Sequence record: MZ576218
DNA from: Escherichia phage vB_EcoS-phiEc4
DNA: 44,540 nt
Strand: one strand, 5' to 3'
Shown here one piece after another: positions 4,875 to 43,553 of this stretch; position 1 is the first letter of the stretch; each line of letters starts with the position of its first letter. Below the pieces are notes generated by a model. The model saw only the letters and a list, made by a program, of their open reading frames with translations, was not told the DNA's origin and did no database searches. Made by a program: the position numbers and the translations under genes.

Positions 4875-4901
4875 GACGGCCTCCTCGGTTCGATAGAATG
4901 A

Positions 4902-4930
4902 ATAGTACCCTATTATATTGGGGTGTGCAA
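4902..4930 (-). promoter_or_regulatory. sigma70-like promoter P_A copy 1 (TTGCAC-17-TACTAT) with AATAG-N4-CTATT palindrome
   Basis: reverse complement reads TTGCACACCCCAATATAATAGGGTACTAT; 29-bp block recurs at 14137..14165, 37896..37924, 39119..39147. Confidence 0.6.
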
Positions 4931-7625: not shown

Positions 7626-7642
7626 ACTAAGAGGATTCCTAA

Positions 7643-7984: not shown

Positions 7985-8020
7985 TACAGCGGCCCTTCGG
8001 GGCCGTAATAAGGAAAGGTC

Positions 8021-8200
8021 ATGGCAGATAATTATGTAATCCGCGAAAAGTACACCCACGTTGATATTGTAGACGGTCAGGTGATGCCTGTTCGCGGTGT
8101 GGTAGAAGCGGATGAACTGGTTGCGACTCAACCGGACAACGAAGAAGCGCACAACAACGGCGGTGGTGCTAAGCGTCGTCGCCGTAAATCAGAGGAATAA
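8021..8200 (+). CDS. 59-aa protein with basic C-terminus (GAKRRRRKSEE)
   Basis: not in ORF track; RBS AGGAAAGG 3 nt upstream of ATG; fills gap between decoration and adaptor genes. Confidence 0.4.
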   Translation: MADNYVIREKYTHVDIVDGQVMPVRGVVEADELVATQPDNEEAHNNGGGAKRRRRKSEE

Positions 8201-8203
8201 TTT

Positions 8204-8716: not shown

Positions 8717-8718
8717 AA

Positions 8719-10084: not shown

Positions 10085-10497
10085 TGGGCTACTTTGAGGA
10101 CTTAACAAAAGCGTTCGATGTGCCACTGGTAGCCTTCGGAACAGCAAACGGCATAAAGGTAGCGCTTGAAAACATCGACGCGCCGACGTCAACAGATACG
10201 CCGTATCTGGCAAGTTACATGTTGCTGGCGGATACCGAGCAGGCTGACTTATTCTTCACGGAACAACGCGCCGGTGTCTATCAGATAGACATTAACTACG
10301 CATCGGTGAAAGGTAGCGCGCCAATCAATAAAATGGCAGACTTACTTAACACGGCGTTTAAAGCAGGTAAGTCATTTTCACGTAACGACATCTGCGCCGA
10401 GGTTCAATCGGTAAGCCTGGGGCCGCTGATTGTAGAAAACGGATGGGCCAAAAGACCATTGTCAATTAACTTTATTGCATTCACCAAGAGGCTGTGA
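10081..10497 (+). CDS. tail terminator protein
   Basis: 138 aa immediately upstream of major tail protein gene; position-based. Confidence 0.45.
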   Translation: MMGYFEDLTKAFDVPLVAFGTANGIKVALENIDAPTSTDTPYLASYMLLADTEQADLFFTEQRAGVYQIDINYASVKGSAPINKMADLLNTAFKAGKSFSRNDICAEVQSVSLGPLIVENGWAKRPLSINFIAFTKRL

Positions 10498-11666: not shown

Positions 11667-11671
11667 AACTA

Positions 11672-11697
11672 AGGCCCCTTTCGGGGCCTTTTTCTTA
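11672..11697. terminator. bidirectional rho-independent terminator
   Basis: AGGCCCC-TTTC-GGGGCCT followed by TTTTTCTT; between convergent major tail gene (+) and kinase gene (-). Confidence 0.75.
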
Positions 11698-14094: not shown

Positions 14095-14136
14095 AACATA
14101 ACTCCTGATTTGAGATAACATCGTTGGTGTAAGTGA

Positions 14137-14165
14137 ATAGTACGCTATTATATTGGGGGGTGCAA
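14137..14165 (-). promoter_or_regulatory. promoter P_A copy 2 (TTGCAC-17-TACTAT) with AATAG-TACG-CTATT palindrome
   Basis: near-identical to 4902..4930; drives the minus-strand Imm/phosphoesterase/phosphatase/kinase operon. Confidence 0.6.
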
Positions 14166-14272
14166 GTAGTGTGCTAGAATAATTTTGCGCCTAGTGTCGC
14201 ACACGAAAAGCGGGTGGTTCCCGTCTGGCGCATTTCCTTTAACCAGTAACCTCTTAACCAAAGGATTAAAGA

Positions 14273-14689
14273 ATGAAACTTTCTGATTTTTATTACGAAG
14301 CGGAAGCCGAAAAGGGCGCACGTATGCCGATACCGCTAAAAGACGGTACTGATTCCGGGGAATGGCTTAATGTTGTTTCTCCTGAGGCGGACGTTGCCGT
14401 TAAGGCTATGCGCGCGTTCACCCTTGCATACCGGGCAGTATTAGGGAAATTAAAACCGCTTCGTGATAAGTGCGAAGAGATGAAAGATTTCTCTGAATAC
14501 AACCTGAAGATGGAAGACGCGGCGACGGACCTTAACCGTCAGTTAGCGATTGAATTGGTTAACGGGTGGAGCCTTGACGACGAATTCAATAAAGAGAATC
14601 TGAACACACTCCTGACGCAATATAAACGACTCGCGGAACTTGTTGTTGTGTTTCATAACGAACAACTGCACCAGCTACAGGAAAAGTAG
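14273..14689 (+). CDS. tail assembly chaperone (G-like)
   Basis: 138 aa immediately upstream of tape measure gene; followed by -1 frame ORF lacking its own RBS. Confidence 0.55.
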   Translation: MKLSDFYYEAEAEKGARMPIPLKDGTDSGEWLNVVSPEADVAVKAMRAFTLAYRAVLGKLKPLRDKCEEMKDFSEYNLKMEDAATDLNRQLAIELVNGWSLDDEFNKENLNTLLTQYKRLAELVVVFHNEQLHQLQEK

Positions 14690-14694
14690 ACGCG

Positions 14695-15054
14695 TTGCTC
14701 CAGTTCGCCCGTTGGAACTTCATAACCCGCCACAAACGGCGGGAATTTGACAGTATCGCCGATGGGCATAAAGCCGCGCTAATTGCTATGGGGGTTATGC
14801 AAGACGCGCCGGATGCAACGCAGGCCGCTGGGCCGGAATGCCCCCCTGAGCTACTAACCACATTTGAGAAGTACAGGGAAATTAAATTCACCCGCCGAGT
14901 GGACGACGACGGCATCAAGATGTACCCGCGCGAGCAATTACGATGGTCAGATTTAGTGGCGTACAGCACCGTTTCAGGCCAGAATATAGGGATGTTCGAA
15001 TCCGACATCATCATGAGCTTAGACGCTATTTTCGAGGGTAGAAACGATGGCTGA
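14695..15054 (+). CDS. tail assembly chaperone T-domain, probably expressed as G-T fusion by -1 frameshift
   Basis: -1 frame relative to 14273..14689; frame open from 14659; near-slippery GGAAAAG at 14680..14686; no ATG or SD at its 5' end. Confidence 0.45.
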   Translation: MLQFARWNFITRHKRREFDSIADGHKAALIAMGVMQDAPDATQAAGPECPPELLTTFEKYREIKFTRRVDDDGIKMYPREQLRWSDLVAYSTVSGQNIGMFESDIIMSLDAIFEGRNDG

Positions 15055-17386: not shown

Positions 17387-18804
17387 TGAGCGACTTATAC
17401 TTTCCACGTAGCCTTAAGCCGGTGGTATCAAAAGGCTACTCAATGACCAGACGTAACAACGTCTGGAGTGTAGATTTAGCCGGTGGCGGGGTGCGTCAGG
17501 GCCGTGACACGTATTACGACGTGTTCCCTGTTAGCGTAACCCTGATTACATCCGCAATGGGGCGGCAGGCGTTTCTGTCGTTCCTCGAGAAAGTCGATGG
17601 TGGCGCGTCAAGTTTCTGGATGGCGCACGACTTCGGCATGGGTATTGAGGATTATCAGGTAACCATCACGTCCACTATAGCGGAGTCCACCGAAGACGGG
17701 ATTAACTGGACAATTACCTTCACGGCAACCGCCGAGAAATCGCCGTTCCAGGACCTTGAGAACCAGTGTCTGATTAACAATCTGCCAGATTTGTATGGCT
17801 GTTATGGTGATTGCCTGGGCAGTTTCCTGAAAATATACGCGAACTATGAAACGACGTTCCCGCGTATCTGGAGTGACGAAGGCCCCGCCGGTTATCCGCC
17901 GATTAACCTTCTGGCGTCCGCGCTGGATAGCCGCATTGTTTATGAGGGGCCACAGGTTTACTACATCAACCGAAATGGCAATCTTGTGCGGTCAGCCGCC
18001 AATGAATGGCCTCTTACGTTTATCGATGGGGTTGCGGTTGGGCGTGTGCCGCCAGAAGGCGGTTCTATTAACTACCAGATAGGTGGATTAGGTATTGGGT
18101 GGGTAAGTAGTTTCAACCGTATACCCCTAACATCAACAGAGGACAGTGTATACCAAGGCAACCTGGCAGGCGCAGTCACCCCAACAACAGAAAATAACAG
18201 CCATTTCTTGTATGCCAAATCGCTAGGGGATTCAGTAATAGATGTTGGGGAAACATATACTGCTACGGTAATTCTTAAGGCGAATGGTGTCCAGTTTATT
18301 CAGGTTTATTGGAACGCAGGTAGCACAGGGATTTCATCGCGCTACTCTAACTTCGACCTTATTAATAAAGCTGTATCAGGCACGGCGACATCGGCTTTCA
18401 TAACTGAAATATCCGATGGGTGGGTTCTATGCTCAACTACCACAATCGCGACGGGGGACGGTTCTTCGCTATCCTCCATATCGGTGGCAAGCATACCGTC
18501 TATGGCGTCTACCAGACTCCCGTCTTACGCATCGGATGGAGAATCTTCTTTTTCAGTTGCGTCCGCTCAGGTTGAAAAAAACCCATTCGCCACGTCACCA
18601 ATAGTAACTGACGCATCACCATCCGCACGCCAAACGGCGTCAGCAAAGGTAGTAATGAGCGGAGCCGCAAGTATTGACATCACCTATTCCGACGGCACTG
18701 TGGTAAACGTTCCGTCTGTAGATGATTACGCGACTATCCCTCAGGCCGATTCTGCGTGGGGTAGTAAATATATCACTCGTATTGATTTTAATGTGGACGG
18801 TTAA
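17386..18804 (+). CDS. distal tail / minor tail protein
   Basis: 472 aa directly after tape measure (ATGA overlap). Confidence 0.5.
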   Translation: MSDLYFPRSLKPVVSKGYSMTRRNNVWSVDLAGGGVRQGRDTYYDVFPVSVTLITSAMGRQAFLSFLEKVDGGASSFWMAHDFGMGIEDYQVTITSTIAESTEDGINWTITFTATAEKSPFQDLENQCLINNLPDLYGCYGDCLGSFLKIYANYETTFPRIWSDEGPAGYPPINLLASALDSRIVYEGPQVYYINRNGNLVRSAANEWPLTFIDGVAVGRVPPEGGSINYQIGGLGIGWVSSFNRIPLTSTEDSVYQGNLAGAVTPTTENNSHFLYAKSLGDSVIDVGETYTATVILKANGVQFIQVYWNAGSTGISSRYSNFDLINKAVSGTATSAFITEISDGWVLCSTTTIATGDGSSLSSISVASIPSMASTRLPSYASDGESSFSVASAQVEKNPFATSPIVTDASPSARQTASAKVVMSGAASIDITYSDGTVVNVPSVDDYATIPQADSAWGSKYITRIDFNVDG

Positions 18805-18807
18805 CTT

Positions 18808-19323
18808 ATGAGTCAGGAATCAGTAGAAGCAGCCTACCGCCGTAAGCTGGCCTCAAACCCCGACGGCGAGATTGACTACACGACGCTGGAGATAGTGCAT
18901 CCGCTTCTTTCGAAGCGGTATTTACTTGTGCGCGGGCTACAGGAACTTACGGCAACACTGGAGACAGGCGAAACTATCACATTCGAACCTACCCCGATGG
19001 AGGCGTCGGGGGCGGCTAACAACAGTGATATGGACCAGACGACAACATTCACTCTGCCGGATATTCTCAATCAACTGGATGATGAGATGGATAAAATCCC
19101 GATGAGTAATACCGAGTTACCGAAGTTCATATTCCGCCGTTACGTCAGCACTGACCTGTCTTACCCGGCTGACGGCCCTGTCGTGTACGAGTTACAGGCC
19201 ATTAATCAGGAGAAGGGCGAGTTCTCCGCAGATGTCGGTACACCTATGCTGAACCAACGAAGCACTGGTATACTGATGACACCTAAAGAGATACCGTTAT
19301 TACGCGGCCTGTTGACCACATGA
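18808..19323 (+). CDS. minor tail protein
   Basis: 171 aa between distal tail protein and K-like gene. Confidence 0.45.
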   Translation: MSQESVEAAYRRKLASNPDGEIDYTTLEIVHPLLSKRYLLVRGLQELTATLETGETITFEPTPMEASGAANNSDMDQTTTFTLPDILNQLDDEMDKIPMSNTELPKFIFRRYVSTDLSYPADGPVVYELQAINQEKGEFSADVGTPMLNQRSTGILMTPKEIPLLRGLLTT

Positions 19324-19685
19324 ATATTAACGACTACACGGGAATACCTTACGACTTTCGCAAACGCAATTGCTGGCATCACGTTCGCATTGTACGGGCC
19401 GATGCCGGGTTAGAAACCCCGGCGTTCGACGTTACAAGCCCAACGGCGATTAACGAAGCGTTCGACGAAGGCCATCGTGACACGAAGGGGCTTACGAAGA
19501 TTGATAAGCCTGAAAACTTCTGTGCGGTGCTTATGGGGTATCGCCGTGGCGGTCGTATCGTGTGGCACGCGGGAGTTTACTTCGACGGGATGGTGAGTCA
19601 TTGCGAGCTTGCGTCCCGTCAGGTACGACTTGACCGGCTGGCGGACCTCAGAGACACGTACACGGAGATTGAATTTTGGCGATAA
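19320..19685 (+). CDS. tail assembly protein, NlpC/P60-like (lambda K-like)
   Basis: 121 aa with Cys (NCWHH) and downstream His consistent with a Cys-His peptidase fold; position before J-like gene. Confidence 0.4.
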   Translation: MNINDYTGIPYDFRKRNCWHHVRIVRADAGLETPAFDVTSPTAINEAFDEGHRDTKGLTKIDKPENFCAVLMGYRRGGRIVWHAGVYFDGMVSHCELASRQVRLDRLADLRDTYTEIEFWR

Positions 19686-22243
19686 TCCTGCACTACACGC
19701 GAAATGCCGACGGGGCTTTCGACCGTACAAAACACGTCGGGATGCCGATGGAGTTTGTCGTTAACCGTATCCCGGACGGCGTTCCGGTACGCGTCTATCT
19801 TGGCGAGATTGGTGATGATACTGATGTTACAGACGACTTCGACGCGCTCAAAGACGAGGACGCCGTGTACCACATTATTGAGGGCGCTGGCGGCGGCATT
19901 GGCGACGCCATCGGGAGTGTATTCAGTTTCATCCTTAAGCCAATCGCCAAATTGTTCGGGCTAAACACAGCGGCTAACGCTAATTATTCCGCTACCAACA
20001 ATCAGGCTACGTCGCCTAACAACAGTCTCACCGACCGCTCAAACAAGCCACGACCTTATGAGCGTTCCTATGATATCTGCGGGACAGTGCAGACCATCCC
20101 CAATGACCTGATGCAGACATATAAGGTGTTTAATGCCTCTGGGGTACTTATTGAATATGCGTACTATGACGCCGGTCGAGGGTATCTGCATATTGAGGAA
20201 GACGGTGTAACTGAGGCAGATACCCGAATCAGCGAGATAACTGGCTCGTCGGTGGCGGTGTATTCCCCTTACACTTCGCCGAATAACACCAACGCCCCAC
20301 AATTGCATATTGGCGACCCGATAGACCAGAAATTGTACGTTACATTTAAAAACGCCGATGTCGATGGCGCTGTTCTTCCCGCCCCTAATGATATCGCTAT
20401 AGACGTGCAGGACTACACTGTCCAGCGGCAGGGAACAACCGGCGTTGTAGTAGGCGATGACGCTGGTTTCGATGAGTTTTTGGCGGTCGGGGACCTGGCA
20501 TACTTCGATAACGTATATGCGGATACAACCCCAGGGTCTTTGGGTAATGAGGTTAACCTGGACGGGAGGTACACGGTTCTTTCTGTTAGTGAAACGACCC
20601 TTATTGTGGACGTCAGTACAAATCAATCAATATGGAACCAGCTAGGGTCATCGGTGTGGTTTATAGGTGAAGAGGGTAACCATCTCATAGGTCCGGCGGA
20701 CACTTACGCGGCTTCCCTCTCTGAATGGGCGTACATCACCCGCGGTACGGTCAACCGTGTTGTAGCCAATGTCGCCGCCAGCAACGGCATGTATAAATAT
20801 AACGGCGATTATAACCGTGCCTCCGTTACGGTGGAACTGCAATACCAGATGGTGGACGAATTGAAACAGCCCGTTGGTGGCATATTCACCGTGCAAGGCA
20901 CTGTTACAGGGAGAAACACCGATTACACTGGTATTACCCTATACGGAAGCTTGCCTACCGCTTCCAGATTCCGCGCCCGTATGCGCCGTGTTTCCGATAC
21001 TGATAAAGATTTTGAGGGTACTGTTAGCGACGAGGTTACTTTCACTAATCTGTACGGGCAGTCACTGGATACAACCCCGCACTACGGCAACCGCACTACT
21101 GTACACTGCGCTCGTAAACAAACCCCACGTGCCGCCGAGGTGTCAGAACCGGAACTGCGCATGATTGCTACCGAGATGTGCTACAAATACTTAGGTAACG
21201 GCGTATTCGATACGGTAATGACACCGAACACTCAGGCCGTGCAGTCGCTAATCAGGCTGGCGCGTGACCCTGTGGTGGGTAATCTGGAACTGACAACGGC
21301 AAATATGGACAAGTTACTTGCCGTGCAGGAAGAAATTGAGTCGTATTTTGGCAGTGAATTAGCCGGGCAGTTCTGCTACACGTTCGACGACTACGACACC
21401 ACGATGCAGGACATCGTTCAGACCATCGCGGAAGCCGTTTTCTGTACTGCGTACCGTAAAGGTGCGGATATTATGCTGCGATTTGATCGTCCGGTTGCGG
21501 GGCCCGAAATGGTGTTCACCCACCGCAGCAAAACTACTGGTACAGAGAAATGGACGCGCACGTTCAACGATTCGACAACCTATGATAGCCTGTCGTTCTC
21601 ATACATCGACCCGGATACTAACGTACAGGAAACGATTTATATCCCGGAAGAACTCGGAGCAAACACCGAGGAATATGAATCGAAGGGCGTACGTAACTAT
21701 CAGCAGGCATATTGGCTGGCGTGGCGTCGCTACCAGCGCAACGCGTTAAGTAAAGTTGTCGTAGAGTTCGAAGCTACCGAAGAGGGTGCACTCGCTACAC
21801 CGGGTGGTGTAATCAGCGTGGTTAAAGGTTCACGTATCGCGCCTCAGGATGGTTATGTTGTTGCCGTTAATGGGCTTACGCTGACACTGTCGCAACCTGT
21901 TACGTTTACCCCCGGCGATGACCACTCCATCATCCTCAAGAAGCGCGATGGCTCCGTGCAGAGTATTTCTGTTATCAAAGGAAGCCACGACCGCGAGGTG
22001 ATTATGCTCTCCGCGCCGGAGGAGGCAATCTACACGGGGAATAGCGCACTAAAAACTGAGTTTTCATTCGGCAACGAAGCAAGGCATAATGCTCAGAAGA
22101 TAGTTGTTTCTTCAATCGACCCCGGCGACGACCGCACGGTCAAGATTACTGGTTACAACTATGACGACGGATTCTATAAATACGACGGCGTCGCGCAACA
22201 CGGCAGCAGCTTCTCCGACGGATTCAGCAATGGTTTTAATTAA
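19676..22243 (+). CDS. tail tip / central fiber protein (J-like host specificity protein)
   Basis: 855 aa; track start is TTG at 19676, first ATG at 19742; largest tail gene after tape measure. Confidence 0.65.
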   Translation: MAIILHYTRNADGAFDRTKHVGMPMEFVVNRIPDGVPVRVYLGEIGDDTDVTDDFDALKDEDAVYHIIEGAGGGIGDAIGSVFSFILKPIAKLFGLNTAANANYSATNNQATSPNNSLTDRSNKPRPYERSYDICGTVQTIPNDLMQTYKVFNASGVLIEYAYYDAGRGYLHIEEDGVTEADTRISEITGSSVAVYSPYTSPNNTNAPQLHIGDPIDQKLYVTFKNADVDGAVLPAPNDIAIDVQDYTVQRQGTTGVVVGDDAGFDEFLAVGDLAYFDNVYADTTPGSLGNEVNLDGRYTVLSVSETTLIVDVSTNQSIWNQLGSSVWFIGEEGNHLIGPADTYAASLSEWAYITRGTVNRVVANVAASNGMYKYNGDYNRASVTVELQYQMVDELKQPVGGIFTVQGTVTGRNTDYTGITLYGSLPTASRFRARMRRVSDTDKDFEGTVSDEVTFTNLYGQSLDTTPHYGNRTTVHCARKQTPRAAEVSEPELRMIATEMCYKYLGNGVFDTVMTPNTQAVQSLIRLARDPVVGNLELTTANMDKLLAVQEEIESYFGSELAGQFCYTFDDYDTTMQDIVQTIAEAVFCTAYRKGADIMLRFDRPVAGPEMVFTHRSKTTGTEKWTRTFNDSTTYDSLSFSYIDPDTNVQETIYIPEELGANTEEYESKGVRNYQQAYWLAWRRYQRNALSKVVVEFEATEEGALATPGGVISVVKGSRIAPQDGYVVAVNGLTLTLSQPVTFTPGDDHSIILKKRDGSVQSISVIKGSHDREVIMLSAPEEAIYTGNSALKTEFSFGNEARHNAQKIVVSSIDPGDDRTVKITGYNYDDGFYKYDGVAQHGSSFSDGFSNGFN

Positions 22244-22255
22244 AGAGGACTCTAT

Positions 22256-24241
22256 ATGTCAAGCGGATGCGGTGACGTTTTAAGCCTGGCGGATTTACAG
22301 ACCGCCAAGAAACATCAGATTTTCGAGGCCGAGGTTATCACTGGCAAATCCGGCGGTGTAGCTACGGGTGCAGACATTGATTACGCAACAAATCAGGTTA
22401 CCGGGCAGACGCAGAAGACGCTTCCTGCCGTGTTGCGCGACGCGGGTTTTTCTCCGGTGTCATGGGATTTCTCCACAGGCGGCACGTTAACCGTTAACGA
22501 CCGGGACAAGGTGGTGTATGACCCTGTTAGCGAAACATGGTACTCGTACGCAGGTACGTTACCAGTTGTTGTCCCTGCATCGTTTAATCCAGTCGGTAAC
22601 GCTAACTGGAAGCCGCAGACAGACCCAAATTTGCGTAATGATTTGGCGTCAAGTACCGCCGGTTTGGGGGCTTCACTGGTGTCTTTTTCCAACGGTAACA
22701 CCGTTGAAACATTATCTGACGCGGACGGTGCCAAGAACATAGGCAGCGGCGAAAGGAGTTTGCTTGCACGTAACAATGATATTAAGCATTCAGGAGACTT
22801 CTCTACCCTGCAAGCTGCAGTAGATGCATCGTTACCGAAAAATGACTTACTTATTTCCCCTGGTGAATATACTGAAAAAGTTACTATTGGTAGCGCACAG
22901 TTAAAAGGCGTTGGTGGGGCTGTAGTACTAAAAACACCAGCAGACTTTACAAACACTGTTCAGGTTAATTTATCGACGCCTCATTGGCAATTCCGCCATA
23001 GTGGCGGTTTTGCTATAGATGGTTCTGGTACAACCGGGGCCGTAGGTATTAGTTTTGACCCGTCAGACCAATATTCCGGACGTCATAATTTTAGTGATTT
23101 ATACATACACAACATCAACAAGGCAATTCAGAAGCCTTCCGGGAACATCGGTAATACATGGAGAAATATTGGGGTATCTACGTGTGATTGGGGGTATTAC
23201 GCGATTAGTGGCTCAGAGATGCATTGCGGGGCCGATACCCTCTACAATATCCACTTCGACGGCATCTCCACCTATGCCGTCTACCTAAACGGCACTGCCG
23301 ATAACGGCGGGATAGGCGGATGGTGGCTTAAAGACTCCATTATTGAGGCTTCCGGAGGTGGCGGGATATATTTAAAAAGCAAATCAGGTGACTGCCCTAC
23401 ATCTCCATGCGGGGTATCCAATGTATGGACGGAAGCGATTGCAACATCATCGGCTGTTCAGGTAGACGGCGTGGCGCAAAAACCGCGAGTTCTCAAGTTG
23501 GTAGACACTGCGATATTCTTTGCTGAGTATTCTTATCTCAACAACATCGAGCTATCCAACTCCAACTTAGTAACTTATGGTTGCCGTTTTGACAACGCTG
23601 ATGGTAATCAGGATATTGTAGTGGATGCACAAAGCACCATTGTAGCCCACGATGTGTATTTAAACGGCAGTTCTGGAAAGGACGTTATTGTAGAGTCTGT
23701 CGCGTCGCAATCCGCAACGGTAGCCACTACAAACTTGTCTCTGCGAGGAAATTTAACAAGGGGACGAGTGTTTAATACGCCGACGGGGAATAAGTTAAAA
23801 GCTATCACATTTGACTCAGGTAGCCATAATTTTTCTGGTAGCGGTACCGTTAACGGTTCGACTGTATCTGACGGACTTCACGCCGCTACATGTACCGAAT
23901 TTTCATTCCCTGGGTCCGGTTTATATGAAATGGTAGCGTCAAGAACGACACTTACATCCGGTAGATGGTACGTGTGGGGCGTCAACTCTCGCCTCCAATC
24001 AGGAACAGCAGATGTGAGTATAACGTCAGGTATTACTATGGGTAGCGTTTATACTAAGTCTGGTGAGTGGATTAGCACATTTGGGGTGGGTAAAGCTTCC
24101 GCTAACGGTACTGTAAGTCTGTACGTCTCTACTGCGGGAGGTTCAGGTGCTGTTATCAGATTTAGCGACTTCTTCATCGCTGAGTTTACGACGCAGGCTC
24201 AGGCTTTAGCTTTCGCTAACTCCCGAATGTCGTTGGCTTAA
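22256..24241 (+). CDS. tailspike protein (beta-helix depolymerase-like)
   Basis: 661 aa; N-terminal particle-binding-like domain; Gly/Asn/Ser/Thr-rich repetitive C-terminal region typical of right-handed beta-helix tailspikes; last gene of structural block. Confidence 0.65.
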   Translation: MSSGCGDVLSLADLQTAKKHQIFEAEVITGKSGGVATGADIDYATNQVTGQTQKTLPAVLRDAGFSPVSWDFSTGGTLTVNDRDKVVYDPVSETWYSYAGTLPVVVPASFNPVGNANWKPQTDPNLRNDLASSTAGLGASLVSFSNGNTVETLSDADGAKNIGSGERSLLARNNDIKHSGDFSTLQAAVDASLPKNDLLISPGEYTEKVTIGSAQLKGVGGAVVLKTPADFTNTVQVNLSTPHWQFRHSGGFAIDGSGTTGAVGISFDPSDQYSGRHNFSDLYIHNINKAIQKPSGNIGNTWRNIGVSTCDWGYYAISGSEMHCGADTLYNIHFDGISTYAVYLNGTADNGGIGGWWLKDSIIEASGGGGIYLKSKSGDCPTSPCGVSNVWTEAIATSSAVQVDGVAQKPRVLKLVDTAIFFAEYSYLNNIELSNSNLVTYGCRFDNADGNQDIVVDAQSTIVAHDVYLNGSSGKDVIVESVASQSATVATTNLSLRGNLTRGRVFNTPTGNKLKAITFDSGSHNFSGSGTVNGSTVSDGLHAATCTEFSFPGSGLYEMVASRTTLTSGRWYVWGVNSRLQSGTADVSITSGITMGSVYTKSGEWISTFGVGKASANGTVSLYVSTAGGSGAVIRFSDFFIAEFTTQAQALAFANSRMSLA

Positions 24242-24246
24242 AACTA

Positions 24247-24270
24247 AGGCCCCAAACGGGGCCTTTTCTC
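24247..24270. terminator. bidirectional rho-independent terminator
   Basis: AGGCCCC-AAAC-GGGGCCT followed by TTTTCTC; between convergent tailspike (+) and minus-strand genes. Confidence 0.75.
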
Positions 24271-24919: not shown

Positions 24920-26340
24920 TTCTTACTCCTACGTTTCATATAATTAAGTAGTTCATCCTGTACAGACCTTTTCTCGTCTGTACGCGCCGCAACAACCTCG
25001 TCCAGAGTGTCTTTAGCAACGATGTGATAAAGGAACACCGGGCGCTCGTGACCCGCCTGTTTCTGGCGGACTGGGCCTATGCGCTCAACAACCTGCAAAT
25101 AGTGCTCAAGGTTCCAGCCTTGCGAGATGAACGCCAGATGATGACCCCCGTCCTGTAAATTCAAACCATGCCCGGCTGACGCAGGATGCACGCATAAAAT
25201 CTCGATTTCCCCACGGTTCCACGCTTCCATCTGCTTGTTCCCCCTAGCGCCTTTGGCGAACGCCTGTGCCTGTGGGAATCGCTTAAGGATACGCTCCAGT
25301 TCGTGTTTAAACTGATAGGCTACCAGCAACGGCGCACCCTGCAACTCCTCAACAATCGACTCGAGCGCATCCAGTTTCGTGTCGTGCACTTTCTCCCAGT
25401 CTTTGGTCGCTTCGCCGTCTGGCCCGGATACATATACAGCACCAGATGCAATCTGCAAGCACTTTGAGGTCTTCGCCGCAGCGTTAGCCGCTTCAACTTC
25501 CCCGCTCTCCAGTTCTGCGAATAACTTCTCCTCCATATCTATGTACGCCTGACGCGCTTTCTTCGGCAGGTCTATTTCCACCGGTACGATAACAGGCGCT
25601 TCACAACCAAACCACTCGGCAGGGTCTATGGTCAGGCTGATGTCTTTCATCTTCTGATGAATCTCATTATCCGCACCCGGTCGTGCATGATACTCGCGGG
25701 CCATAGCCGATTTACCTTTCTGTACCGAGTTAAACCAGCGGTCGGTGAATGCTGTGTACGAAGAGCCGAGGCGCTCGCCAGCGTCGATAAACCAGTTCTG
25801 ACCCCACAAGTCTTTGAGGCCGTTTGGTGACGGTGTGCCTGTCAGGTTGATGAAACGCTTAACCTTTCCGAACGCAACCTTGCTGAGCGCCTTTGCCCGC
25901 TTGCTACCACCCGAACGGCTGCGGAACGATTTAAGCTTCGTGCTTTCATCGGCAACGATAACCGTAAAAGGCCAGTCGTCTTTGCCGTAGTAGTCAATTA
26001 GCCACTCGATAACTTCGTAGTTAGTGCACACCACGTTAGCATCTGACTCCAGCGCTGCGATGCGGCGCTTCTCCGAACCAGTTGCATCTACGACACGCAG
26101 ACAAGGGAATTGCCATTTCTCTTGTTCAGCAGGCCACGTACCGGACGCAACACGTAACGGGGCAAGGATTAACACGCGGTCCTCTTCCGTAAGCTGCCCG
26201 TTGCGGAACAGGCGGTTGAGCACCCACATAGTGGAGGAGGTTTTACCTCCCCCCATTCCGCACCAGATATTACAGCGCGGGTGTTGCAGCATGAACGAGG
26301 TCATGAGCTTCTGGTACTCGCGTCTTTGAAACTTACTCAT
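24916..26340 (-). CDS. SNF2-family helicase
   Basis: 474 aa; Walker A GMGGGKT, DExx box DESTK, motif III LTGTPSPN. Confidence 0.75.
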   Translation of the reverse strand: MSKFQRREYQKLMTSFMLQHPRCNIWCGMGGGKTSSTMWVLNRLFRNGQLTEEDRVLILAPLRVASGTWPAEQEKWQFPCLRVVDATGSEKRRIAALESDANVVCTNYEVIEWLIDYYGKDDWPFTVIVADESTKLKSFRSRSGGSKRAKALSKVAFGKVKRFINLTGTPSPNGLKDLWGQNWFIDAGERLGSSYTAFTDRWFNSVQKGKSAMAREYHARPGADNEIHQKMKDISLTIDPAEWFGCEAPVIVPVEIDLPKKARQAYIDMEEKLFAELESGEVEAANAAAKTSKCLQIASGAVYVSGPDGEATKDWEKVHDTKLDALESIVEELQGAPLLVAYQFKHELERILKRFPQAQAFAKGARGNKQMEAWNRGEIEILCVHPASAGHGLNLQDGGHHLAFISQGWNLEHYLQVVERIGPVRQKQAGHERPVFLYHIVAKDTLDEVVAARTDEKRSVQDELLNYMKRRSKK

Positions 26341-27277
26341 TTACCGCCCCCATGAATGCCTTTATAAATTCAGCGGCTACTTGCGGGACGATGGCATTGC
26401 CGTAACCGCGCAATCGTCCCACTCTGGCGGGTATCCCATTAGCCAGCGGGAATGCGCCGGGTTCAACTGGCCGGAATTTTCCATCCCGGCAGCCGAGCCA
26501 GTCAGCATCTGACCAGAAGCCGTGATGCGAATTGGTTGCGTTATCGCCGCTGCTTGTGCCACGTCTTGAGGTCCACCCTTCCTCTGAATCTCCGATAGTG
26601 CCCCCTCTAGTGTTCTCACGTTCTTTTCCCCGTCCGCACTGCGAGGAGTAGGCCAATTCGTCAGTTTTAGCCCCTGTTCCGTTGAGTAGTCCAGCCTGTC
26701 GAATGTTCTGTCCTTCCCGTCCTTGCGGATAACAGTCTCTCCGCTCCCTTTGTAATCGTTCGCGGTCGGTGTCGGCCAATTCGTGCGCACCAAAGAAGAG
26801 TCGTTCTCTTTTGTGCGGAGCGCCGACGCTACAAGCTGGGAGTACGGCAAACCCGACGGCGTAGTCTTCTCCTTCCAGGTGAGTTTGTAAATCGCACATC
26901 CACGATTTTGCAATTGCTGGCGCAACCTGTTCCCCAAAGAGGACTGGAGGGTGGCACTCGCTGATGAGGTCAAGGAATACGGGCGCGAGGTGTCTCGGGT
27001 CGAACTGTCCGAGTTGCTTTCCTGCCGTGCTAAACGGTTGGCAAGGCGGGCTTCCCGTCCAGAGAGGCGCATCTTCCGGAACTCCCGCAAGTCTGAGCGC
27101 GAGAGGCCAGCCGCCGATACCAGCGAAAAAATGACACTGGGTGAATCCGTCGAGGTCTTCTGGCTTAACTTCAGTAATGCTTCTTTCATCTACAACTCCA
27201 AAAGGTATGTGACCCTGTTTTATTAATTCACGCAGCCACGCGGCTGCGCCTTTATCCCATTCGTTGTAATAGTTCAT
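26333..27277 (-). CDS. DNA (cytosine-5) methyltransferase
   Basis: 314 aa; motif I FAGIGG, motif IV SPPCQPFS, motif VIII KRERLFF, motif X GNAIVPQVA; atypical low-complexity variable region. Confidence 0.7.
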   Translation of the reverse strand: MNYYNEWDKGAAAWLRELIKQGHIPFGVVDERSITEVKPEDLDGFTQCHFFAGIGGWPLALRLAGVPEDAPLWTGSPPCQPFSTAGKQLGQFDPRHLAPVFLDLISECHPPVLFGEQVAPAIAKSWMCDLQTHLEGEDYAVGFAVLPACSVGAPHKRERLFFGAHELADTDRERLQRERRDCYPQGREGQNIRQAGLLNGTGAKTDELAYSSQCGRGKERENTRGGTIGDSEEGWTSRRGTSSGDNATNSHHGFWSDADWLGCRDGKFRPVEPGAFPLANGIPARVGRLRGYGNAIVPQVAAEFIKAFMGAVNE

Positions 27278-27495: not shown

Positions 27496-27783
27496 CTAAC
27501 TATAATAGTTCGCTATTAGGGCGTCAACCTGTTTAAACGAACCAACGACAAAAACATTAGCACCACGCTTACGCATCCGCTCGTGCTCCCGTAACTGGTG
27601 TGGATCCGGCTTCGTGCTTTCGTCTTTCTTTATCTCGACGAACCAGATGACGCCGCCGGGGAGAATTACCAGCAGGTCAGGGGCGCCGGAACGTCCTTCG
27701 TAGGAAAGTTTACGAACGAGGCCACCAATGGCCTCGAATCGGTCTTTTGCGTATTTCTGTATTTTGCCCTCAGGCGTACTCAT
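27496..27783 (-). CDS. VRR-NUC domain nuclease
   Basis: track ORF 27496..27819; likely start ATG 27783 with RBS GAGGGG; motif GAPDLLVILPGGVIWFVEIKK. Confidence 0.7.
   Translation of the reverse strand: MSTPEGKIQKYAKDRFEAIGGLVRKLSYEGRSGAPDLLVILPGGVIWFVEIKKDESTKPDPHQLREHERMRKRGANVFVVGSFKQVDALIANYYS
27499..27527 (-). promoter_or_regulatory. promoter P_B (TTGACG-17-TATAGT) with AATAG-TTCG-CTATT palindrome in spacer
   Basis: reverse complement reads TTGACGCCCTAATAGCGAACTATTATAGT; same layout as 31259..31287 and 34170..34198. Confidence 0.55.
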
Positions 27784-30525: not shown

Positions 30526-30553
30526 TTAGTAAAAAGGCCCAATGAAGGGCCTT
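30526..30553 (-). terminator. hairpin AAGGCCC-TTCATT-GGGCCTT followed by TTTTTACT (minus strand)
   Basis: read on reverse complement downstream of 30573..31205. Confidence 0.5.
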
Positions 30554-31258: not shown

Positions 31259-31287
31259 ACTATAATAGCTAACTATTCATGTGTCAA
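31259..31287 (-). promoter_or_regulatory. promoter P_B (TTGACA-17-TATAGT) with AATAG-CTAA-CTATT palindrome in spacer
   Basis: reverse complement reads TTGACACATGAATAGTTAGCTATTATAGT. Confidence 0.6.
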
Positions 31288-33913: not shown

Positions 33914-34141
33914 TTACTCGCCGTCGCCTTCTGTAAGGCTATCGTCTATTAATTCAAATTTACCGTTTGGGTGTTGAATAGCTTCTTGCCCGCAATGGTC
34001 GCAGACAACAAGTTTATCGAACCCATCAAACTCGTCCCCGACTACGCAAGAAAGTACAAATTTATGTTTTGTGCACACTTCCTGCGATTCTCCGAAAATT
34101 GCTAGAAAACCTTTAGCTATGGCTCCCGTTATTGTGTTCAT
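33914..34141 (-). CDS. hypothetical Cys-rich protein
   Basis: 75 aa; C...C...CDHC spacing; RBS GAGGGG; preceded by P_B promoter. Confidence 0.5.
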   Translation of the reverse strand: MNTITGAIAKGFLAIFGESQEVCTKHKFVLSCVVGDEFDGFDKLVVCDHCGQEAIQHPNGKFELIDDSLTEGDGE

Positions 34142-34169
34142 ATCCGCCCCTCTCGTTTGGTATGGGCTA

Positions 34170-34198
34170 ACTATAATAGCGAACTATTCACATGTCAA
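34170..34198 (-). promoter_or_regulatory. promoter P_B (TTGACA-17-TATAGT) with AATAG-CGAA-CTATT palindrome in spacer
   Basis: reverse complement reads TTGACATGTGAATAGTTCGCTATTATAGT; divergent from the HTH gene promoter. Confidence 0.6.
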
Positions 34199-34222
34199 TG
34201 GGCTTTTCTAAAATAATTAATA

Positions 34223-34231
34223 TGGTACTAT
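34223..34231 (+). promoter_or_regulatory. extended -10 element TGgTACTAT upstream of the XRE-type HTH gene
   Basis: TGn-TACTAT about 30 nt upstream of ATG 34263; resembles the -10 half of the P_A family with degenerate palindrome AATAT-GGTA-CTATT. Confidence 0.4.
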
Positions 34232-34262
34232 TCACACATCAACTGACTAAGGAGTAATTGAC

Positions 34263-34478
34263 ATGCAACCATCCGAACTAGGCATCCGTGTAGAGCAACG
34301 CCGTAAAGAACTCGGCATCTCCCAGCGCCGTCTGGCTGTCCTGGCCGGTGTCTCCCAGGGCGCAATTAACCAGCTGGCTCTCGGTGTAACTCAGGACGTC
34401 CGCCCGGCAACGTTGTTTAAACTGGCGGAAGTGCTGGAAGTAGACGCTAAGTGGCTGGCGTTCGGTGAAGGGGCTTGA
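34263..34478 (+). CDS. XRE-family HTH transcriptional regulator (Cro/CI-like)
   Basis: 71 aa; helix-turn-helix GISQRRLAVLAGVSQGAINQL; RBS AAGGAG; divergent from replication-module promoter. Confidence 0.7.
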   Translation: MQPSELGIRVEQRRKELGISQRRLAVLAGVSQGAINQLALGVTQDVRPATLFKLAEVLEVDAKWLAFGEGA

Positions 34479-34495
34479 CGCCCCTTTCTTTTTAT
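34470..34495. terminator. bidirectional rho-independent terminator
   Basis: GGGGC-TTGAC-GCCCC followed by TTTCTTTTTATT; between convergent HTH gene (+) and 34492..34689 (-). Confidence 0.7.
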
Positions 34496-34689
34496 TGCAC
34501 CTTTATCGGGTATCTTTTGCGAAACTTACCTAACCCGCAGTACACGCTGTAAGCCTCTGTGTAACTGAACACAACATGATACCCGCGCCCATAAGGAACT
34601 ACGTTAAGAACTTCTACTACTTCGCCTCTGTGGTTGGTGTATTTATTACCTTTCAGTTCGTCGCTTACTTCTTTAAATTTACCGCTCAT
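34492..34689 (-). CDS. hypothetical protein
   Basis: 65 aa ORF ATGA-coupled to primase-helicase gene. Confidence 0.5.
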   Translation of the reverse strand: MSGKFKEVSDELKGNKYTNHRGEVVEVLNVVPYGRGYHVVFSYTEAYSVYCGLGKFRKRYPIKVQ

Positions 34690-37023: not shown

Positions 37024-37314
37024 TTATCTTTTAGCCAGACATTCCATCAAATGTGCGTACTTACGATAATAATCTGCGACAATCTCATCACCGAAATACT
37101 GATAAACGTAGGATAGGTGGTCGGAGACATCGATGGAAGCCGACATTGTGCTGAGTCTTCTTAGACTAATCGACTGCAATTCTTCTGTAACGCAAAACGG
37201 CAAATATGAGTCCAGTTTACAGGAAACGTTAAAACACAACGCATACTCACCTTGCACTAAATAGACCATATAAGCACTGTCATTTTCTTTATCGTGGAAA
37301 ATTACACCTTTCAT
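37024..37314 (-). CDS. hypothetical protein
   Basis: 96 aa; ATGA overlap with upstream HTH gene. Confidence 0.45.
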   Translation of the reverse strand: MKGVIFHDKENDSAYMVYLVQGEYALCFNVSCKLDSYLPFCVTEELQSISLRRLSTMSASIDVSDHLSYVYQYFGDEIVADYYRKYAHLMECLAKR

Positions 37315-37481
37315 TTCACGTTCTCCTTAATCCACGCTTCAACTTTATTACGGTCAAATGTTCCTGGTAAACGGCGCCCCATTACTTTAACGCTGCAATC
37401 AGGAAACTTTCCACTCTTAATCCAGTTATTGATTGTCTGGCGGGTGACGCCGATTAATTCTGCAACTTCATTGATAGTCAT
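37311..37481 (-). CDS. AlpA/excisionase-type HTH DNA-binding protein
   Basis: track ORF 37311..37571; likely start ATG 37481 with RBS AGGAGA; motif TINEVAELIGVTRQTINNWIK. Confidence 0.55.
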   Translation of the reverse strand: MTINEVAELIGVTRQTINNWIKSGKFPDCSVKVMGRRLPGTFDRNKVEAWIKENVK

Positions 37482-37510
37482 CTCGCGCTCTCCTGTGTAA
37501 TATGTATCGA

Positions 37511-37539
37511 AGTATAAGGCGGTAACTTTGTAAAAGCAA
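37511..37539 (-). promoter_or_regulatory. sigma70-like promoter (TTGCTT-17-TATACT) for minus-strand operon
   Basis: read on reverse complement; TSS about 23 nt upstream of ATG 37481. Confidence 0.5.
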
Positions 37540-37586
37540 CCAAAACACCACGCAAAGTTACTAAAATACAAAAGATGCTACTGGTA

Positions 37587-37615
37587 TTGACTTTTACTTG
37601 AAAATATGCTAAGCT
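37587..37615 (+). promoter_or_regulatory. promoter P_C copy 2 (TTGACT-17-TGcTAAGCT, extended -10)
   Basis: same architecture as 4997..5025. Confidence 0.55.
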
Positions 37616-37620
37616 TCACT

Positions 37621-37858
37621 GAGCTTGTGAGATATCGCAAGCGACCGCGGAGCGGCAGGGAACGCAACGCGTGCCATTAGGCACTTGAGTGTAGTTCCGC
37701 TGACGCTTTCGGAAGGGTCAAAGTCTATTGTTAATCCCGCCTAAATATCCAAGTCACGGATAATTAAAAGTTTCTATAGTTGCCGTGAGCAAGGTAGAGA
37801 GTACTTCACTCCGCTGGGGTGGGCTAACGCCCACCCACTGCGTTGCGTACTCTTTTAA
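37621..37858 (+). ncRNA. promoter-proximal structured RNA element, copy 2
   Basis: core 37621..37725 homologous to 5032..5135 with compensatory substitutions; 3' region has GC-rich hairpin GGGTGGGC-TAAC-GCCCACCC nested in AGAGTAC/GTACTCT helix followed by TTTT. Confidence 0.5.
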
Positions 37859-37895
37859 GAAACGAAAGAATCACAGCGGCAACGTAACTATTCTC

Positions 37896-37924
37896 TTGCA
37901 CACCCCAACATAATAGGATACTAT
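37896..37924 (+). promoter_or_regulatory. promoter P_A copy 3 (TTGCAC-17-TACTAT) with AATAG-GATA-CTATT palindrome
   Basis: TTGCACACCCCAACATAATAGGATACTAT; followed by leader GAGACAGAGGAG and gene 37959. Confidence 0.6.
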
Positions 37925-37958
37925 TCACTTATCGAAACGAGACAGAGGAGTGAGGGTT

Positions 37959-38150
37959 ATGTTTAAGAAGGGTCAGTTGGTTAAAACTAAACGCGGAGGG
38001 CAATATGTATTAGTGTTGCAGGACGAGAGCGAGTATGACGAGGATAATCTGGTTGACGTATGGGGTCTGGTAAGAAAGAAAACTGGGTTCGCCTCACGCG
38101 ATAATTTAGAACTCATCGGCAACAATTTTAAATTCAAAGGGGTGAAGTGA
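37959..38150 (+). CDS. hypothetical early protein
   Basis: track ORF 37950..38150; ATG 37959 with RBS GAGGAGTGAGGG. Confidence 0.5.
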   Translation: MFKKGQLVKTKRGGQYVLVLQDESEYDEDNLVDVWGLVRKKTGFASRDNLELIGNNFKFKGVK

Positions 38151-38365
38151 TGGAAGAATTAATTTGTATTGAATCCCGCCAGGATGTGCAGGATTGGTTT
38201 GTGAAAGGTAACAAATATTCGTCAGGAGTATATTACGACGGCCGTCGATACGTTTTAGATGAAGACGGTGATGAATGGGATTTAGAGGACACTGTGGGCG
38301 AGACTTTAACCGTTAGTTTTCTTCAATGTTGTTTCCGCATCATTCACAACGGCATCGAATCATGA
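38150..38365 (+). CDS. hypothetical early protein
   Basis: track ORF 38147..38365; ATG 38150 overlaps previous stop. Confidence 0.5.
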   Translation: MEELICIESRQDVQDWFVKGNKYSSGVYYDGRRYVLDEDGDEWDLEDTVGETLTVSFLQCCFRIIHNGIES

Positions 38366-38447
38366 GGCTCGTGCCGACGACTCTGAGGGAGGTTGCCGTG
38401 GATAATATTTTAATTGTCAGCGCTGTTTATGTGGGGTGGAGGTTGAT

Positions 38448-38642
38448 ATGAGTCCATATAATGAATTCCGCTTACGCCGTCTTGTTGGTGGGCTGCGCGC
38501 CGCCGAGTTTGGCGTTGAATGTTGGGAAAAGGCGAAGTACACCCCATGGAAGTCGTGGAATTTGGCCCACGCTAAGGCGGTAGCGCAGTACCGGGAGTAC
38601 AAGTTAAATAGTTTCCTAAAGCACCACGGAGTAGAGCTATGA
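38448..38642 (+). CDS. hypothetical early protein
   Basis: track ORF 38436..38642; ATG 38448 with RBS GGAGG. Confidence 0.5.
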   Translation: MSPYNEFRLRRLVGGLRAAEFGVECWEKAKYTPWKSWNLAHAKAVAQYREYKLNSFLKHHGVEL

Positions 38643-38782
38643 GAGAAGCATTCGAACGGTGGGCCGTCGTCGAGGGTCTGCCGGTTAACAAGGGTTCAAA
38701 GAAAGAGTACCTGAACGTTAAGACGCGTCTTGCGTGGCGGGCGTGGAAAGCTGGTGTGCAGTATGTGATGAATACGAGGTGA
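38639..38782 (+). CDS. 47-aa hypothetical protein
   Basis: not in track; ATGA overlap with previous gene. Confidence 0.4.
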   Translation: MREAFERWAVVEGLPVNKGSKKEYLNVKTRLAWRAWKAGVQYVMNTR

Positions 38783-38785
38783 TTT

Positions 38786-38971
38786 ATGGGTGAGTGGATT
38801 AAGTGTAGTGAGCGGATGCCGGAGCCTTATGAATACGTTCTTGTAACTGATTGTTTTGTTGGCTGTGAGGTTATGCGTGTTAATTCGGATGGCTACTGGG
38901 GACCAGCGAAGAGTTTATACCACGGCGATATCTCCCACTGGATGCCCTTACCTGAGCCACCGGAGGTGTGA
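38786..38971 (+). CDS. hypothetical early protein
   Basis: 61 aa; RBS GAGGTG upstream. Confidence 0.5.
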   Translation: MGEWIKCSERMPEPYEYVLVTDCFVGCEVMRVNSDGYWGPAKSLYHGDISHWMPLPEPPEV

Positions 38972-39004
38972 TGTTCAATAGTTTGGGATTTTACTGAGTG
39001 ACTT

Positions 39005-39040
39005 ACGCTGCTACACAGCAGCGTATCATTTTTCTCATTT
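39005..39040 (+). terminator. rho-independent terminator
   Basis: ACGCTGCT-ACAC-AGCAGCGT 8-bp stem followed by ATCATTTTTCTCATTTTTG. Confidence 0.65.
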
Positions 39041-39118: not shown

Positions 39119-39147
39119 TTGCACACTAAGATAGAATAGGCTACTAT
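39119..39147 (+). promoter_or_regulatory. promoter P_A copy 4 (TTGCAC-17-TACTAT) with AATAG-GCTA-CTATT palindrome
   Basis: TTGCACACTAAGATAGAATAGGCTACTAT; followed by leader GAGAGACAGAGG as in copy 3. Confidence 0.6.
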
Positions 39148-39178
39148 TCATTTACACAAACTAGAGGAGAGACAGAGG

Positions 39179-42096: not shown

Positions 42097-42117
42097 TCTA
42101 TTTCCGATAATGACTAG

Positions 42118-42146
42118 TTGACTATTACCACCGACCCTATTATATT
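42118..42146 (+). promoter_or_regulatory. sigma70-like promoter (TTGACT-17-TATATT)
   Basis: read directly; about 35 nt upstream of ATG 42181. Confidence 0.55.
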
Positions 42147-43149: not shown

Positions 43150-43320
43150 ATGTTCAGTGACATTAACGCGGCAATCGAAGAAGCAATCTGGCGTCGCTAC
43201 AACGGCGAGCAACAACGGCATTTCTGCCTGGTGCAACGCGGTAACATGATTGCCGTAGTGCAGGACCGCGATAACAAATATCCGAATGCGATGTGGACAA
43301 CGAGGAATTTTTTAGGATGA
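43150..43320 (+). CDS. 56-aa hypothetical protein
   Basis: not in track; ATG 6 nt after previous stop. Confidence 0.4.
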   Translation: MFSDINAAIEEAIWRRYNGEQQRHFCLVQRGNMIAVVQDRDNKYPNAMWTTRNFLG

Positions 43321-43553
43321 TTACCAGCATTCCGAACCTGATTAAAGAATTCGGCACGATGGCCGAGACATGCCGGCAAACCGGCATCAACGAAATGACG
43401 ATTGCGAAGTACAGCAAAGACGTTGATTGCGAGCGCCACGTAATTTATAACAATCGTCTGATGACACATGTTAAGACAAGCCCGGTGTTATTCACGCGCC
43501 GAGGTATCACTAAAACTGAGCAACGCATTGCTAAAGAGGAGAGTGGAGAATGA
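43317..43553 (+). CDS. small HTH-like DNA-binding protein
   Basis: track ORF 43293..43553; ATG 43317 (ATGA overlap) or 43293; segment AETCRQTGINEMTIAKYSK looks helix-turn-helix. Confidence 0.45.
   Translation: MITSIPNLIKEFGTMAETCRQTGINEMTIAKYSKDVDCERHVIYNNRLMTHVKTSPVLFTRRGITKTEQRIAKEESGE

Follow-up and report, generated by a model that had tools for sequence, protein, structure and literature searches.

A shared palindrome in the early promoters of Escherichia phage vB_EcoS-phiEc4 as a probable operator of a phage-encoded Cro-like repressor

Why should one 14-bp palindrome recur in promoters spread over the whole genome of a lytic phage? The question arises around positions 34,170–34,231 of Escherichia phage vB_EcoS-phiEc4 (sequence record MZ576218), where a perfect and an imperfect copy of the dyad AATAG-N4-CTATT lie between a leftward operon and the divergent gene of a small XRE-type helix-turn-helix (HTH) protein. 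The window analyzed here, the whole stretch of 44,540 nucleotides, represents the essentially complete genome of a lytic E. coli siphophage of the genus Kagunavirus (Guernseyvirinae), with 98% identity to vB_EcoS-phiEc3 and vB_Eco_K-01 in the regulatory and early region and 97.9% identity to vB_Eco_K-02 in the structural half. The first-pass annotation of this DNA had read the dyad as the operator of a dimeric repressor, and this reading is supported by the position of the dyad in core promoters, by selection on its half-sites, by conservation across genera and by symmetric changes specific to individual lineages; judged from these sequence comparisons, the dyad is very probably a repressor operator. 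The fuller model, in which the repressor would be a phage-encoded HTH dimer, the XRE protein would be its subunit and this protein would act as an orphan Cro, seems to us likely, if held with less assurance. Within that model we infer binding, dimerization, repression, start sites and timing.

The dyad and its promoters

The exact dyad (AATAGNNNNCTATT) was found seven times in the window, at the very starts listed by the first-pass annotation: 4901..4914, 14136..14149, 27504..27517, 31264..31277, 34175..34188, 37912..37925 and 39135..39148. Only 0.06 copies were expected, and none of 100 shuffled sequences reached seven. When all dyads with arms of 4–6 nt and gaps of 0–10 were ranked, this one came out at the top of the window (Poisson p ~2e-14), a frequency well above expectation. 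The degenerate copy described next to the XRE gene (AATATGGTACTATT, one mismatch) does exist, although its true place is 34219..34232 on the plus strand, one base to the right of the 34218–34231 first assigned to it. A position weight matrix built from the eight sites scored them at 19–34.5 bits, with the next-best position at 13.5 bits, close to the mean best score of shuffled genomes (12.0); a single shuffle, at 25.2 bits, exceeded the 19.0 bits of site 27504. The copies of the first promoter family described below are paralogues, so these seven sites cannot be counted as seven independent events.

The promoters fall into two families. In P_A (TTGCAC-17-TACTAT), which was read directly from the sequence, the dyad lies over the -10 hexamer. 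In P_B (TTGAC(A/G)-17-TATAGT), which a sigma-70 scan found independently, it lies in the spacer and reaches the first base of the -10; the three P_B promoters match 10–11 of the 12 consensus positions of sigma-70. All eight dyads overlap predicted sigma-70 core promoters, at -19..-6 in P_A and -25..-12 in P_B in the predicted register. One dyad is therefore found in two unrelated promoter registers, and its slightly asymmetric flanks (rTGAATAG...CTATTATA) occur in opposite orientations across the promoters. The four P_A copies had been called near-identical, which is true of three of them, while that at 39135 has 74% identity over 53 nt; the leader GAGACAGAGGA said to be shared by the third and fourth copies was confirmed by comparison. 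A possible rightward promoter from the plus-strand TATAAT that the P_B dyad creates was rejected by eye, there being no -35.

Two P_A operators are on the minus strand, namely 4901..4914 (putative -10 TACTAT at 4902–4907 and -35 TTGCAC at 4925–4930) and 14136..14149 (putative -10 at 14137–14142, -35 at 14160–14165), and two are on the plus strand, 37912..37925 (-35 at 37896–37901, -10 at 37919–37924) and 39135..39148 (-35 at 39119–39124, -10 at 39142–39147). The P_B promoters are all on the minus strand: TTGACG-17-TATAGT at 27527..27499 around the operator 27504..27517, and TTGACA-17-TATAGT at both 31287..31259 (operator 31264..31277) and 34198..34170 (operator 34175..34188), the last divergent from the XRE gene. 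The degenerate operator at 34219..34232 lies on the promoter of the XRE gene itself, which has the -10 TACTAT at 34226–34231 and a weak -35; the centres of this site and of the 34175 operator are 44 bp apart.

A palindrome of this kind can form a stem of 5–6 bp with a 4-nt loop, and could be imagined to act as an RNA or DNA hairpin instead of a protein site. We consider this extremely improbable. The stability predicted for six of the seven sites, -1.4 to -2.5 kcal/mol, is too low, and the dyads, being upstream of the predicted start sites, are not transcribed from their own promoters. Pairing also finds no support from compensatory changes, because the arms never vary, and an Rfam search gave no match at the operator sites.

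Selection on the half-sites and variation between lineages

The dyad was found at orthologous promoters in phiEc3, in fFiEco03 and in 37 metagenomic Kagunavirus loci, and an exact copy lies ~88 bp upstream of the XRE start in 37 of 37 Kagunavirus-type loci (L004–L040). In Jerseyvirus (LSPA1 and ten further loci; ~78% genome identity) it again occupies orthologous promoters, often extended to TAATAG-N4-CTATTA. The 4901 operator, for instance, has orthologous copies in phiEc3, fFiEco03 and LSPA1, and those of the 14136 operator have different central 4 bp. Over 30–37 unique orthologous sequences per site, mean variability was 0–0.011 at the ten half-site positions, 0.015–0.18 at the central four and 0.03–0.10 in the flanks, the central 4 bp varying about ten times as much as the half-sites. 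At 27504 the values were 0.010 for the half-sites versus 0.183 for the centre (30 unique orthologous sequences), and at 34175 the half-site variability was 0.000. The AATAT mismatch of the XRE-proximal copy at 34219 is itself invariant in 33 unique orthologous sequences, and the XRE-proximal copies in Jerseyvirus LSPA1 are likewise degenerate, a conservation that suggests a site tuned to be weaker.

Could the dyad instead be a promoter element, in one version intrinsic to sigma-70 promoters and requiring no separate binding protein? Both half-sites do resemble -10 hexamers (ATAAT, TACTAT), and in P_A the right half is the -10. Moreover, the same 20-mer has been published for the Kagunavirus fBC-Eco01, also with seven copies per genome, as PHIRE-predicted "phage RNA polymerase" promoters with the consensus tgAATAGTa-ccTATTat-T; that paper separately notes two HTH proteins, which it does not connect to the motif (PMC9825357). 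Against such a role, no RNA polymerase or sigma factor (nor any integrase or CI repressor) is annotated in the relatives examined (phiEc3, fFiEco03, LSPA1), and the motif occurs in two registers and in both orientations relative to good -35 and -10 hexamers. Both half-sites of P_B, and the left half of P_A, lie in the spacer, where they are invariant; promoter function alone fails to explain this conservation because sigma-70 has no sequence requirement there. Phages that share a host also carry symmetric lineage variants of the dyad, which an unchanged host polymerase would not demand. A promoter element is accordingly a quite improbable explanation, and the label of "phage RNA polymerase promoter", given for an enzyme that these phages do not encode, is a mislabel of the dyad motif, which the operator reading corrects.

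The lineage variants also bear on the nature of the binding protein. Several lineages differ in the recognition helix of XRE and have, at the same promoter positions and immediately upstream of XRE too, dyads of another sequence. In L057 the helix is QGGIGH and the dyad AATAC-N4-GTATT. In L065/L069, two IMG/VR contigs of a distant Guernseyvirinae-like lineage, a QGYISH helix accompanies TTAGC-N2-GCTAA inside TTGACA-17-TAAAGT promoters (in L065 the dyads are at ~6831, 9896, 14523 and 16413). Cornellvirus has the helix QSAISH and mostly ATTAG or ATTAC half-sites, and the phiEap-2 type has QGRVSH with a half-site of AATA followed by G, C or T. Covariation of helix and operator is clear for L057 and L065/L069. 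That the dyad changes symmetrically and by lineage among phages with common hosts speaks for a dimer encoded by the phage over a host factor or a polymerase element. A host regulator, which would couple the early genes to host physiology, nevertheless deserves mention, given that the dyad is identical in phages of E. coli and Salmonella. TrpR is an example: its operator in trp, ACTAG-N4-CTAGT, is likewise built as 5-N4-5 and bears an apparent likeness to the dyad, from which it differs by one base per half-site. However, the CTAG core is essential for TrpR and is not present in the dyad, Jerseyvirus and Cornellvirus both infect Salmonella and their dyads differ, and a cognate phage repressor gene adjoins two of the sites. 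We regard a host regulator as very unlikely.

The XRE protein and other candidate binders

The first-pass annotation listed three HTH proteins as candidate binders, and of these the XRE protein is favoured by the sequence evidence: it is a homologue of 434 Cro, it has sites adjoining its gene, and it is found in every lineage that carries the dyad system. The gene (34263..34478, plus strand; terminator at 34467–34487) encodes 71 amino acids with a Pfam HTH_3 match at 2.3e-12. It occurs in 501 phage records, and all Guernseyvirinae lineages examined have it. The best match of its product among PDB sequences is 434 Cro, also of 71 amino acids (phmmer E-value 5.4e-7, residues 6–68). An AlphaFold model, which rests on a shallow alignment since the homologue search gave close relatives only, shows five helices (pLDDT 79.8), and Foldseek aligned it with 434 Cro/repressor, P22 c2, SinR and C-proteins at TM-scores of 0.7–0.8 (0.72–0.80 for the first three). 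434 Cro and repressor, P22 c2, SinR and the controller (C) proteins of restriction-modification systems bind dyads as dimers. The GenBank labels of the gene include "transcriptional repressor DicA", "cro" and "repressor".

Outside the Guernseyvirinae, the nearest homologues of the XRE protein (39–44% identity) are encoded by cro genes in the cI<->cro-cII modules of lambdoid temperate phages, and the intergenic regions of those loci carry 14-bp operators of the form ACAA-N6-TTGT or ACAG-N6-CTGT. Read in the 434 frame, the dyad is AATA-N6-TATT, in sequence the same length and layout as these lambdoid Cro operators. The first glutamine of the recognition helix is invariant across all lineages; in 434 it is this glutamine that makes contact with the first adenine. 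The 90 bp upstream of the XRE gene hold two sites, one of them the conserved weaker copy on its own -10, through which we infer that the XRE promoter is autoregulated. Taken together, the predicted binder is most probably the 71-aa Cro homologue at 34263–34478.

The second candidate, the 56-aa AlpA/excisionase-like HTH_17 protein (37311–37481, minus strand), might bind the operator alone or together with XRE. It is 80–100% conserved across Kagunavirus and Jerseyvirus, both of which have the perfect AATAG-N4-CTATT, while their XRE helices differ, and the asymmetric flank at each site (TG on one side, AT on the other) could hint at a second partner. In the one RNA-seq time course found for a Kagunavirus, that of K1B4, its orthologue is one of four "early" genes (PMC12645636). 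On the other hand, Cornellvirus, the phiEap-2 type, L057 and L065/L069 lack HTH_17 and have dyads at equivalent promoter positions all the same; nor does the predicted promoter of HTH_17 itself contain a dyad, HTH_17 being the first gene of an operator-less leftward operon. Small excisionase- or MerR-like winged HTH proteins without a dimerization helix usually bind direct repeats and not 14-bp palindromes. Nor does the system resemble MerR-type spacer binding, in which the spacer is over-long (19–20 bp) and the regulator dimerizes through a coiled-coil helix: the spacers here are 17 bp, and the 56-aa protein has no further domain. Being absent from four dyad-bearing lineages, HTH_17 is the less favoured candidate, and we retain it as a minor rival or co-factor whose role as the binder is unlikely.

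The third candidate, the small HTH protein at 43317..43553, is NinH-like and fared worst. It is present and 62–100% conserved in most Guernseyvirinae loci examined, and its relative in lambda is a homodimeric HTH DNA-binding protein; lambda NinH, however, resembles Fis and favours bent DNA with a degenerate 15-bp G-N13-C motif (PMC7166090). This motif is not matched by the dyad with its flanks, the gene is far from any site, lying upstream of terS in the rightward block, and its Pfam score of 23.4 bits falls short of the threshold of 29.8. That this protein is the binder appears to us scarcely probable.

Several observations weigh against the operator model with XRE as its repressor. The P_A promoters match sigma-70 only moderately (7 of 12) and were missed by the sigma-70 scan. 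The dyads of Cornellvirus and of the phiEap-2 type are degenerate, and there the covariation with the helix is suggestive and not clean. Between Kagunavirus and Jerseyvirus the XRE proteins have 51% identity and differ at four of six exposed helix positions (QGAINQ vs QSLITH), with an identical dyad, a case that in detail runs counter to the covariation, and the AlpA-like protein, which has 80% identity across these genera, is present along with the perfect AATAG form. In the K1B4 data the XRE orthologue is classed as "middle", and the polymerase, methyltransferase and Imm genes, which are in operator-controlled operons, peak in the last time class, unlike what early shut-off would give (PMC12645636). 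The K1B4 experiment cannot resolve a single cycle, because it used a multiplicity of infection of 100 and eight samples up to 120 min, the latent period being 30 min (PMC12645636).

The proposed regulon and its place in phage biology

How would one small repressor at these sites act during infection? After infection, transcription by host sigma-70 RNA polymerase would begin at the seven promoters with an operator and at the weak XRE promoter. With rising amounts of the Cro-like protein, each perfect dyad would become occupied by a dimer that covers the -10 in P_A (centre at about -12.5) or the spacer and the edge of the -10 in P_B (centre at about -18.5), thus excluding polymerase. Two accessory cassettes, three operons of the replication block and two rightward early operons would be turned down jointly. 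The promoter of XRE would close last, because its conserved site has one mismatch, and negative autoregulation would result. Promoters without a dyad would stay on, namely that at 42118, those of the leaders at 4997 and 37586, and the TTGCTT-17-TATACT promoter ahead of HTH_17 and the helicase-primase. The protein would thus perform the turn-down role of Cro alone, with no CI partner and no lysogeny module.

The regulon map of the first-pass annotation, with its two cassettes, three operons of the replication block, two rightward early operons and the gene of XRE, proved correct against a gene order taken from the list of open reading frames (ORFs) and annotated relatives, from which the gene names are also taken. 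Structural genes run rightward at 1–4618, 5250–11666 and 14273–24241, and the two cassettes are inserted among them in the leftward direction (4776 to 4432 and 14121 to 11695). The replication block is leftward from 37481 to 24270, with the XRE gene as its sole rightward gene, and small early genes, lysis genes and terS follow rightward from 37950 to the end. The 4901 promoter drives the one-gene cassette 4776 to 4432, which ends at a bidirectional terminator (4339–4359), and the 14136 promoter drives 14121 to 11695, encoding a superinfection-immunity-like protein, a metallophosphoesterase, an acid phosphatase and small ORFs. In the replication block, the 27504 operator is ahead of the operon 27465 to 24270 (a small ORF, a cytosine methyltransferase at 26333–27277, a SNF2-type helicase and others), the 31264 operator is ahead of a DUF2815 ssDNA-binding-like gene, DNA polymerase I and downstream genes, and the 34175 promoter reads leftward into 34141 to 31273 (small ORFs and a PD-(D/E)XK nuclease). 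On the right, the 37912 promoter drives the small early genes 37950 to 38971, up to a terminator at 39004–39025, and the 39135 promoter drives genes from ~39198 onward.

Other elements were observed at the boundaries of these units. A GC-rich hairpin, AAGGCC-N8-GGCCTT, occurs three times (11671–11690, 24246–24265 and 30534–30553; p ~4e-9), in each case at a transcription-unit boundary, and is also found in Cornellvirus; the copy at 11671, at least, has T-runs flanking on both strands and is a bidirectional terminator. The Rfam int-alpA RNA (RF02996) has a match at 14184–14248 on the plus strand, in the interval that separates the P_A promoter at 14136 from the tail operon (start at 14273), with 36.6 bits, little more than the gathering score of 35.8.

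Promoters free of the dyad were also found. The leftward HTH_17 operon (HTH_17, a 96-aa ORF, the helicase-primase and a 65-aa ORF) has its apparent start in the region 37482–37545 on the minus strand, at TTGCTT-17-TATACT with the -35 at 37534–37539 and the -10 at 37511–37516 (read directly), and there is no dyad there; if this start holds, the primase-helicase operon is the one replication unit outside the proposed regulon. Paralogous structured noncoding elements lie at 4997–5232 and 37586–37862 on the plus strand, each opening with an operator-less TTGACT-17-TAAGCT promoter and ending in a terminator hairpin; they share a conserved core of ~120 nt with 80% identity between copies and two compensatory base-pair changes, have no Rfam match and give a minimum free energy z-score of -2.4. 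The first copy, directly upstream of the head/late operon, has 95% identity in Jerseyvirus LSPA1 vs ~78% for the genome. These elements may be leader or antitermination-type RNAs in a layout comparable to lambda PR'-6S-tR'. A further promoter-like site, TTGACT-17-TATATT (10/12), is found at 42118, within 42113–42146, after a terminator and before the small genes preceding terS. Its -35 overlaps the dyad-like ACTAGTTGACTATT, whose dyad positions vary among relatives; the promoter is probably operator-free and could sustain late rightward transcription.

A search for extra sites, allowing up to two mismatches and also using the weight matrix, gave hits that we do not regard as operators. The one-mismatch hit at 42113 is mainly the -35 TTGACT just described, with variable dyad positions and no constraint of the dyad type, and that at 4992 mainly overlaps a -35 TTGACT and has a single good half-site. 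The hit at 2776 is invariant, but it has no recognizable -35 and lies inside a 94-bp block that is 99–100% identical in three relatives. This block (2736–2830), downstream of the portal-gene terminator, has 100% identity in phiEc3 and in Jerseyvirus LSPA1, and in fFiEco03 the value is 98.9%; the genome average for Jerseyvirus is much lower, at ~78%. The block contains the one-mismatch dyad TATAGTATGCTATT centred on an ATG at 2782.

Lysogeny is judged absent because the annotations of the relatives lack it and because no prophage copy of 34100–34500 was found among 5,426 complete E. coli genomes, the sole match being a CRISPR spacer. This spacer belongs to E. coli strain 2017.09.02CC (NZ_AP025214.2) and matches with 100% identity the 33 bp at 34194–34226, between the two XRE-proximal operators.

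Among known systems, the closest parallel is 434 Cro with its OR/OL operators (ACAA-N6-TTGT). The two have in common a protein of 71 aa at ~40% identity with the same five-helix fold (predicted here), and a 14-bp operator with conserved outer bases and a variable centre that overlaps core promoters and is paired with a conserved first helix glutamine. They differ in the half-site, AATA(G) here and not ACAA, and in that the present phage, obligately lytic, has no CI, PRM or tripartite OR, its eight operators being single and spread genome-wide. The system thus shares with Cro/CI-type (434-like) systems the HTH_3 fold, the dyad with variable centre, the promoter overlap and the adjoining regulator gene; a lambdoid immunity region is not found, no CI or integrase being annotated in this or related genomes and the gene divergent from XRE being a 75-aa ORF that heads a replication operon. 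XRE would work like Cro but is no member of an immunity switch. The proposed lowering of early transcription and of its own synthesis by a small, early-made repressor is that of lambda Cro at PL/PR, although lambda Cro acts on two promoter regions only and inside the lysis-lysogeny switch, and has a different fold. One repressor at many scattered promoters that include accessory genes, as proposed here, is also known from P1 C1, which is a large monomer that recognizes asymmetric 17-bp sites and maintains lysogeny; here the dyad is symmetric, the protein Cro-sized and lysogeny absent. P22 c2/Cro and the C-proteins share the HTH_3 fold and bind dyads with a short variable centre, and C-proteins autoregulate through paired sites upstream of their own gene. 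The sequence identity of P22 c2 and the C-proteins to XRE is lower (21–33%), and unlike a C-protein the XRE protein has no restriction enzyme partner, the methyltransferase (26333–27277) being in a controlled operon and not adjacent. A search of the open-access literature brought up no paper in which the motif is taken for an operator or a Cro regulon is described for Guernseyvirinae phages, and nothing relevant on Cro-like shut-off in virulent phages.

The mechanism itself is textbook Cro biology and holds no surprise for the specialist. Should the model be right, a single 71-aa protein and a single 14-bp sequence account for how a large group of lytic coliphages and Salmonella phages, one of practical importance, coordinates almost all of its non-structural transcription. 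L057, L065/L069 and the other lineages then offer a natural series of possibly distinct small repressor-operator pairs on strong sigma-70 promoters. More tentatively, and as a doubtful proposition for now, the early-to-late programme of all Guernseyvirinae might depend on an orphan Cro, the operator specificity of which has changed from lineage to lineage (AATAG, AATAC, ATTAG, TTAGC), giving "immunity groups" without lysogeny; if that is true, an incoming phage of the same group would find its eight promoters silenced by XRE supplied in trans, be it from a plasmid, from a host gene that has been captured or from a phage that co-infects the cell. The Guernseyvirinae are strictly lytic and widely used in phage therapy and biocontrol, and the model predicts, in the expression of XRE in trans, a simple route to resistance or cross-exclusion that would be relevant to therapeutic cocktails.

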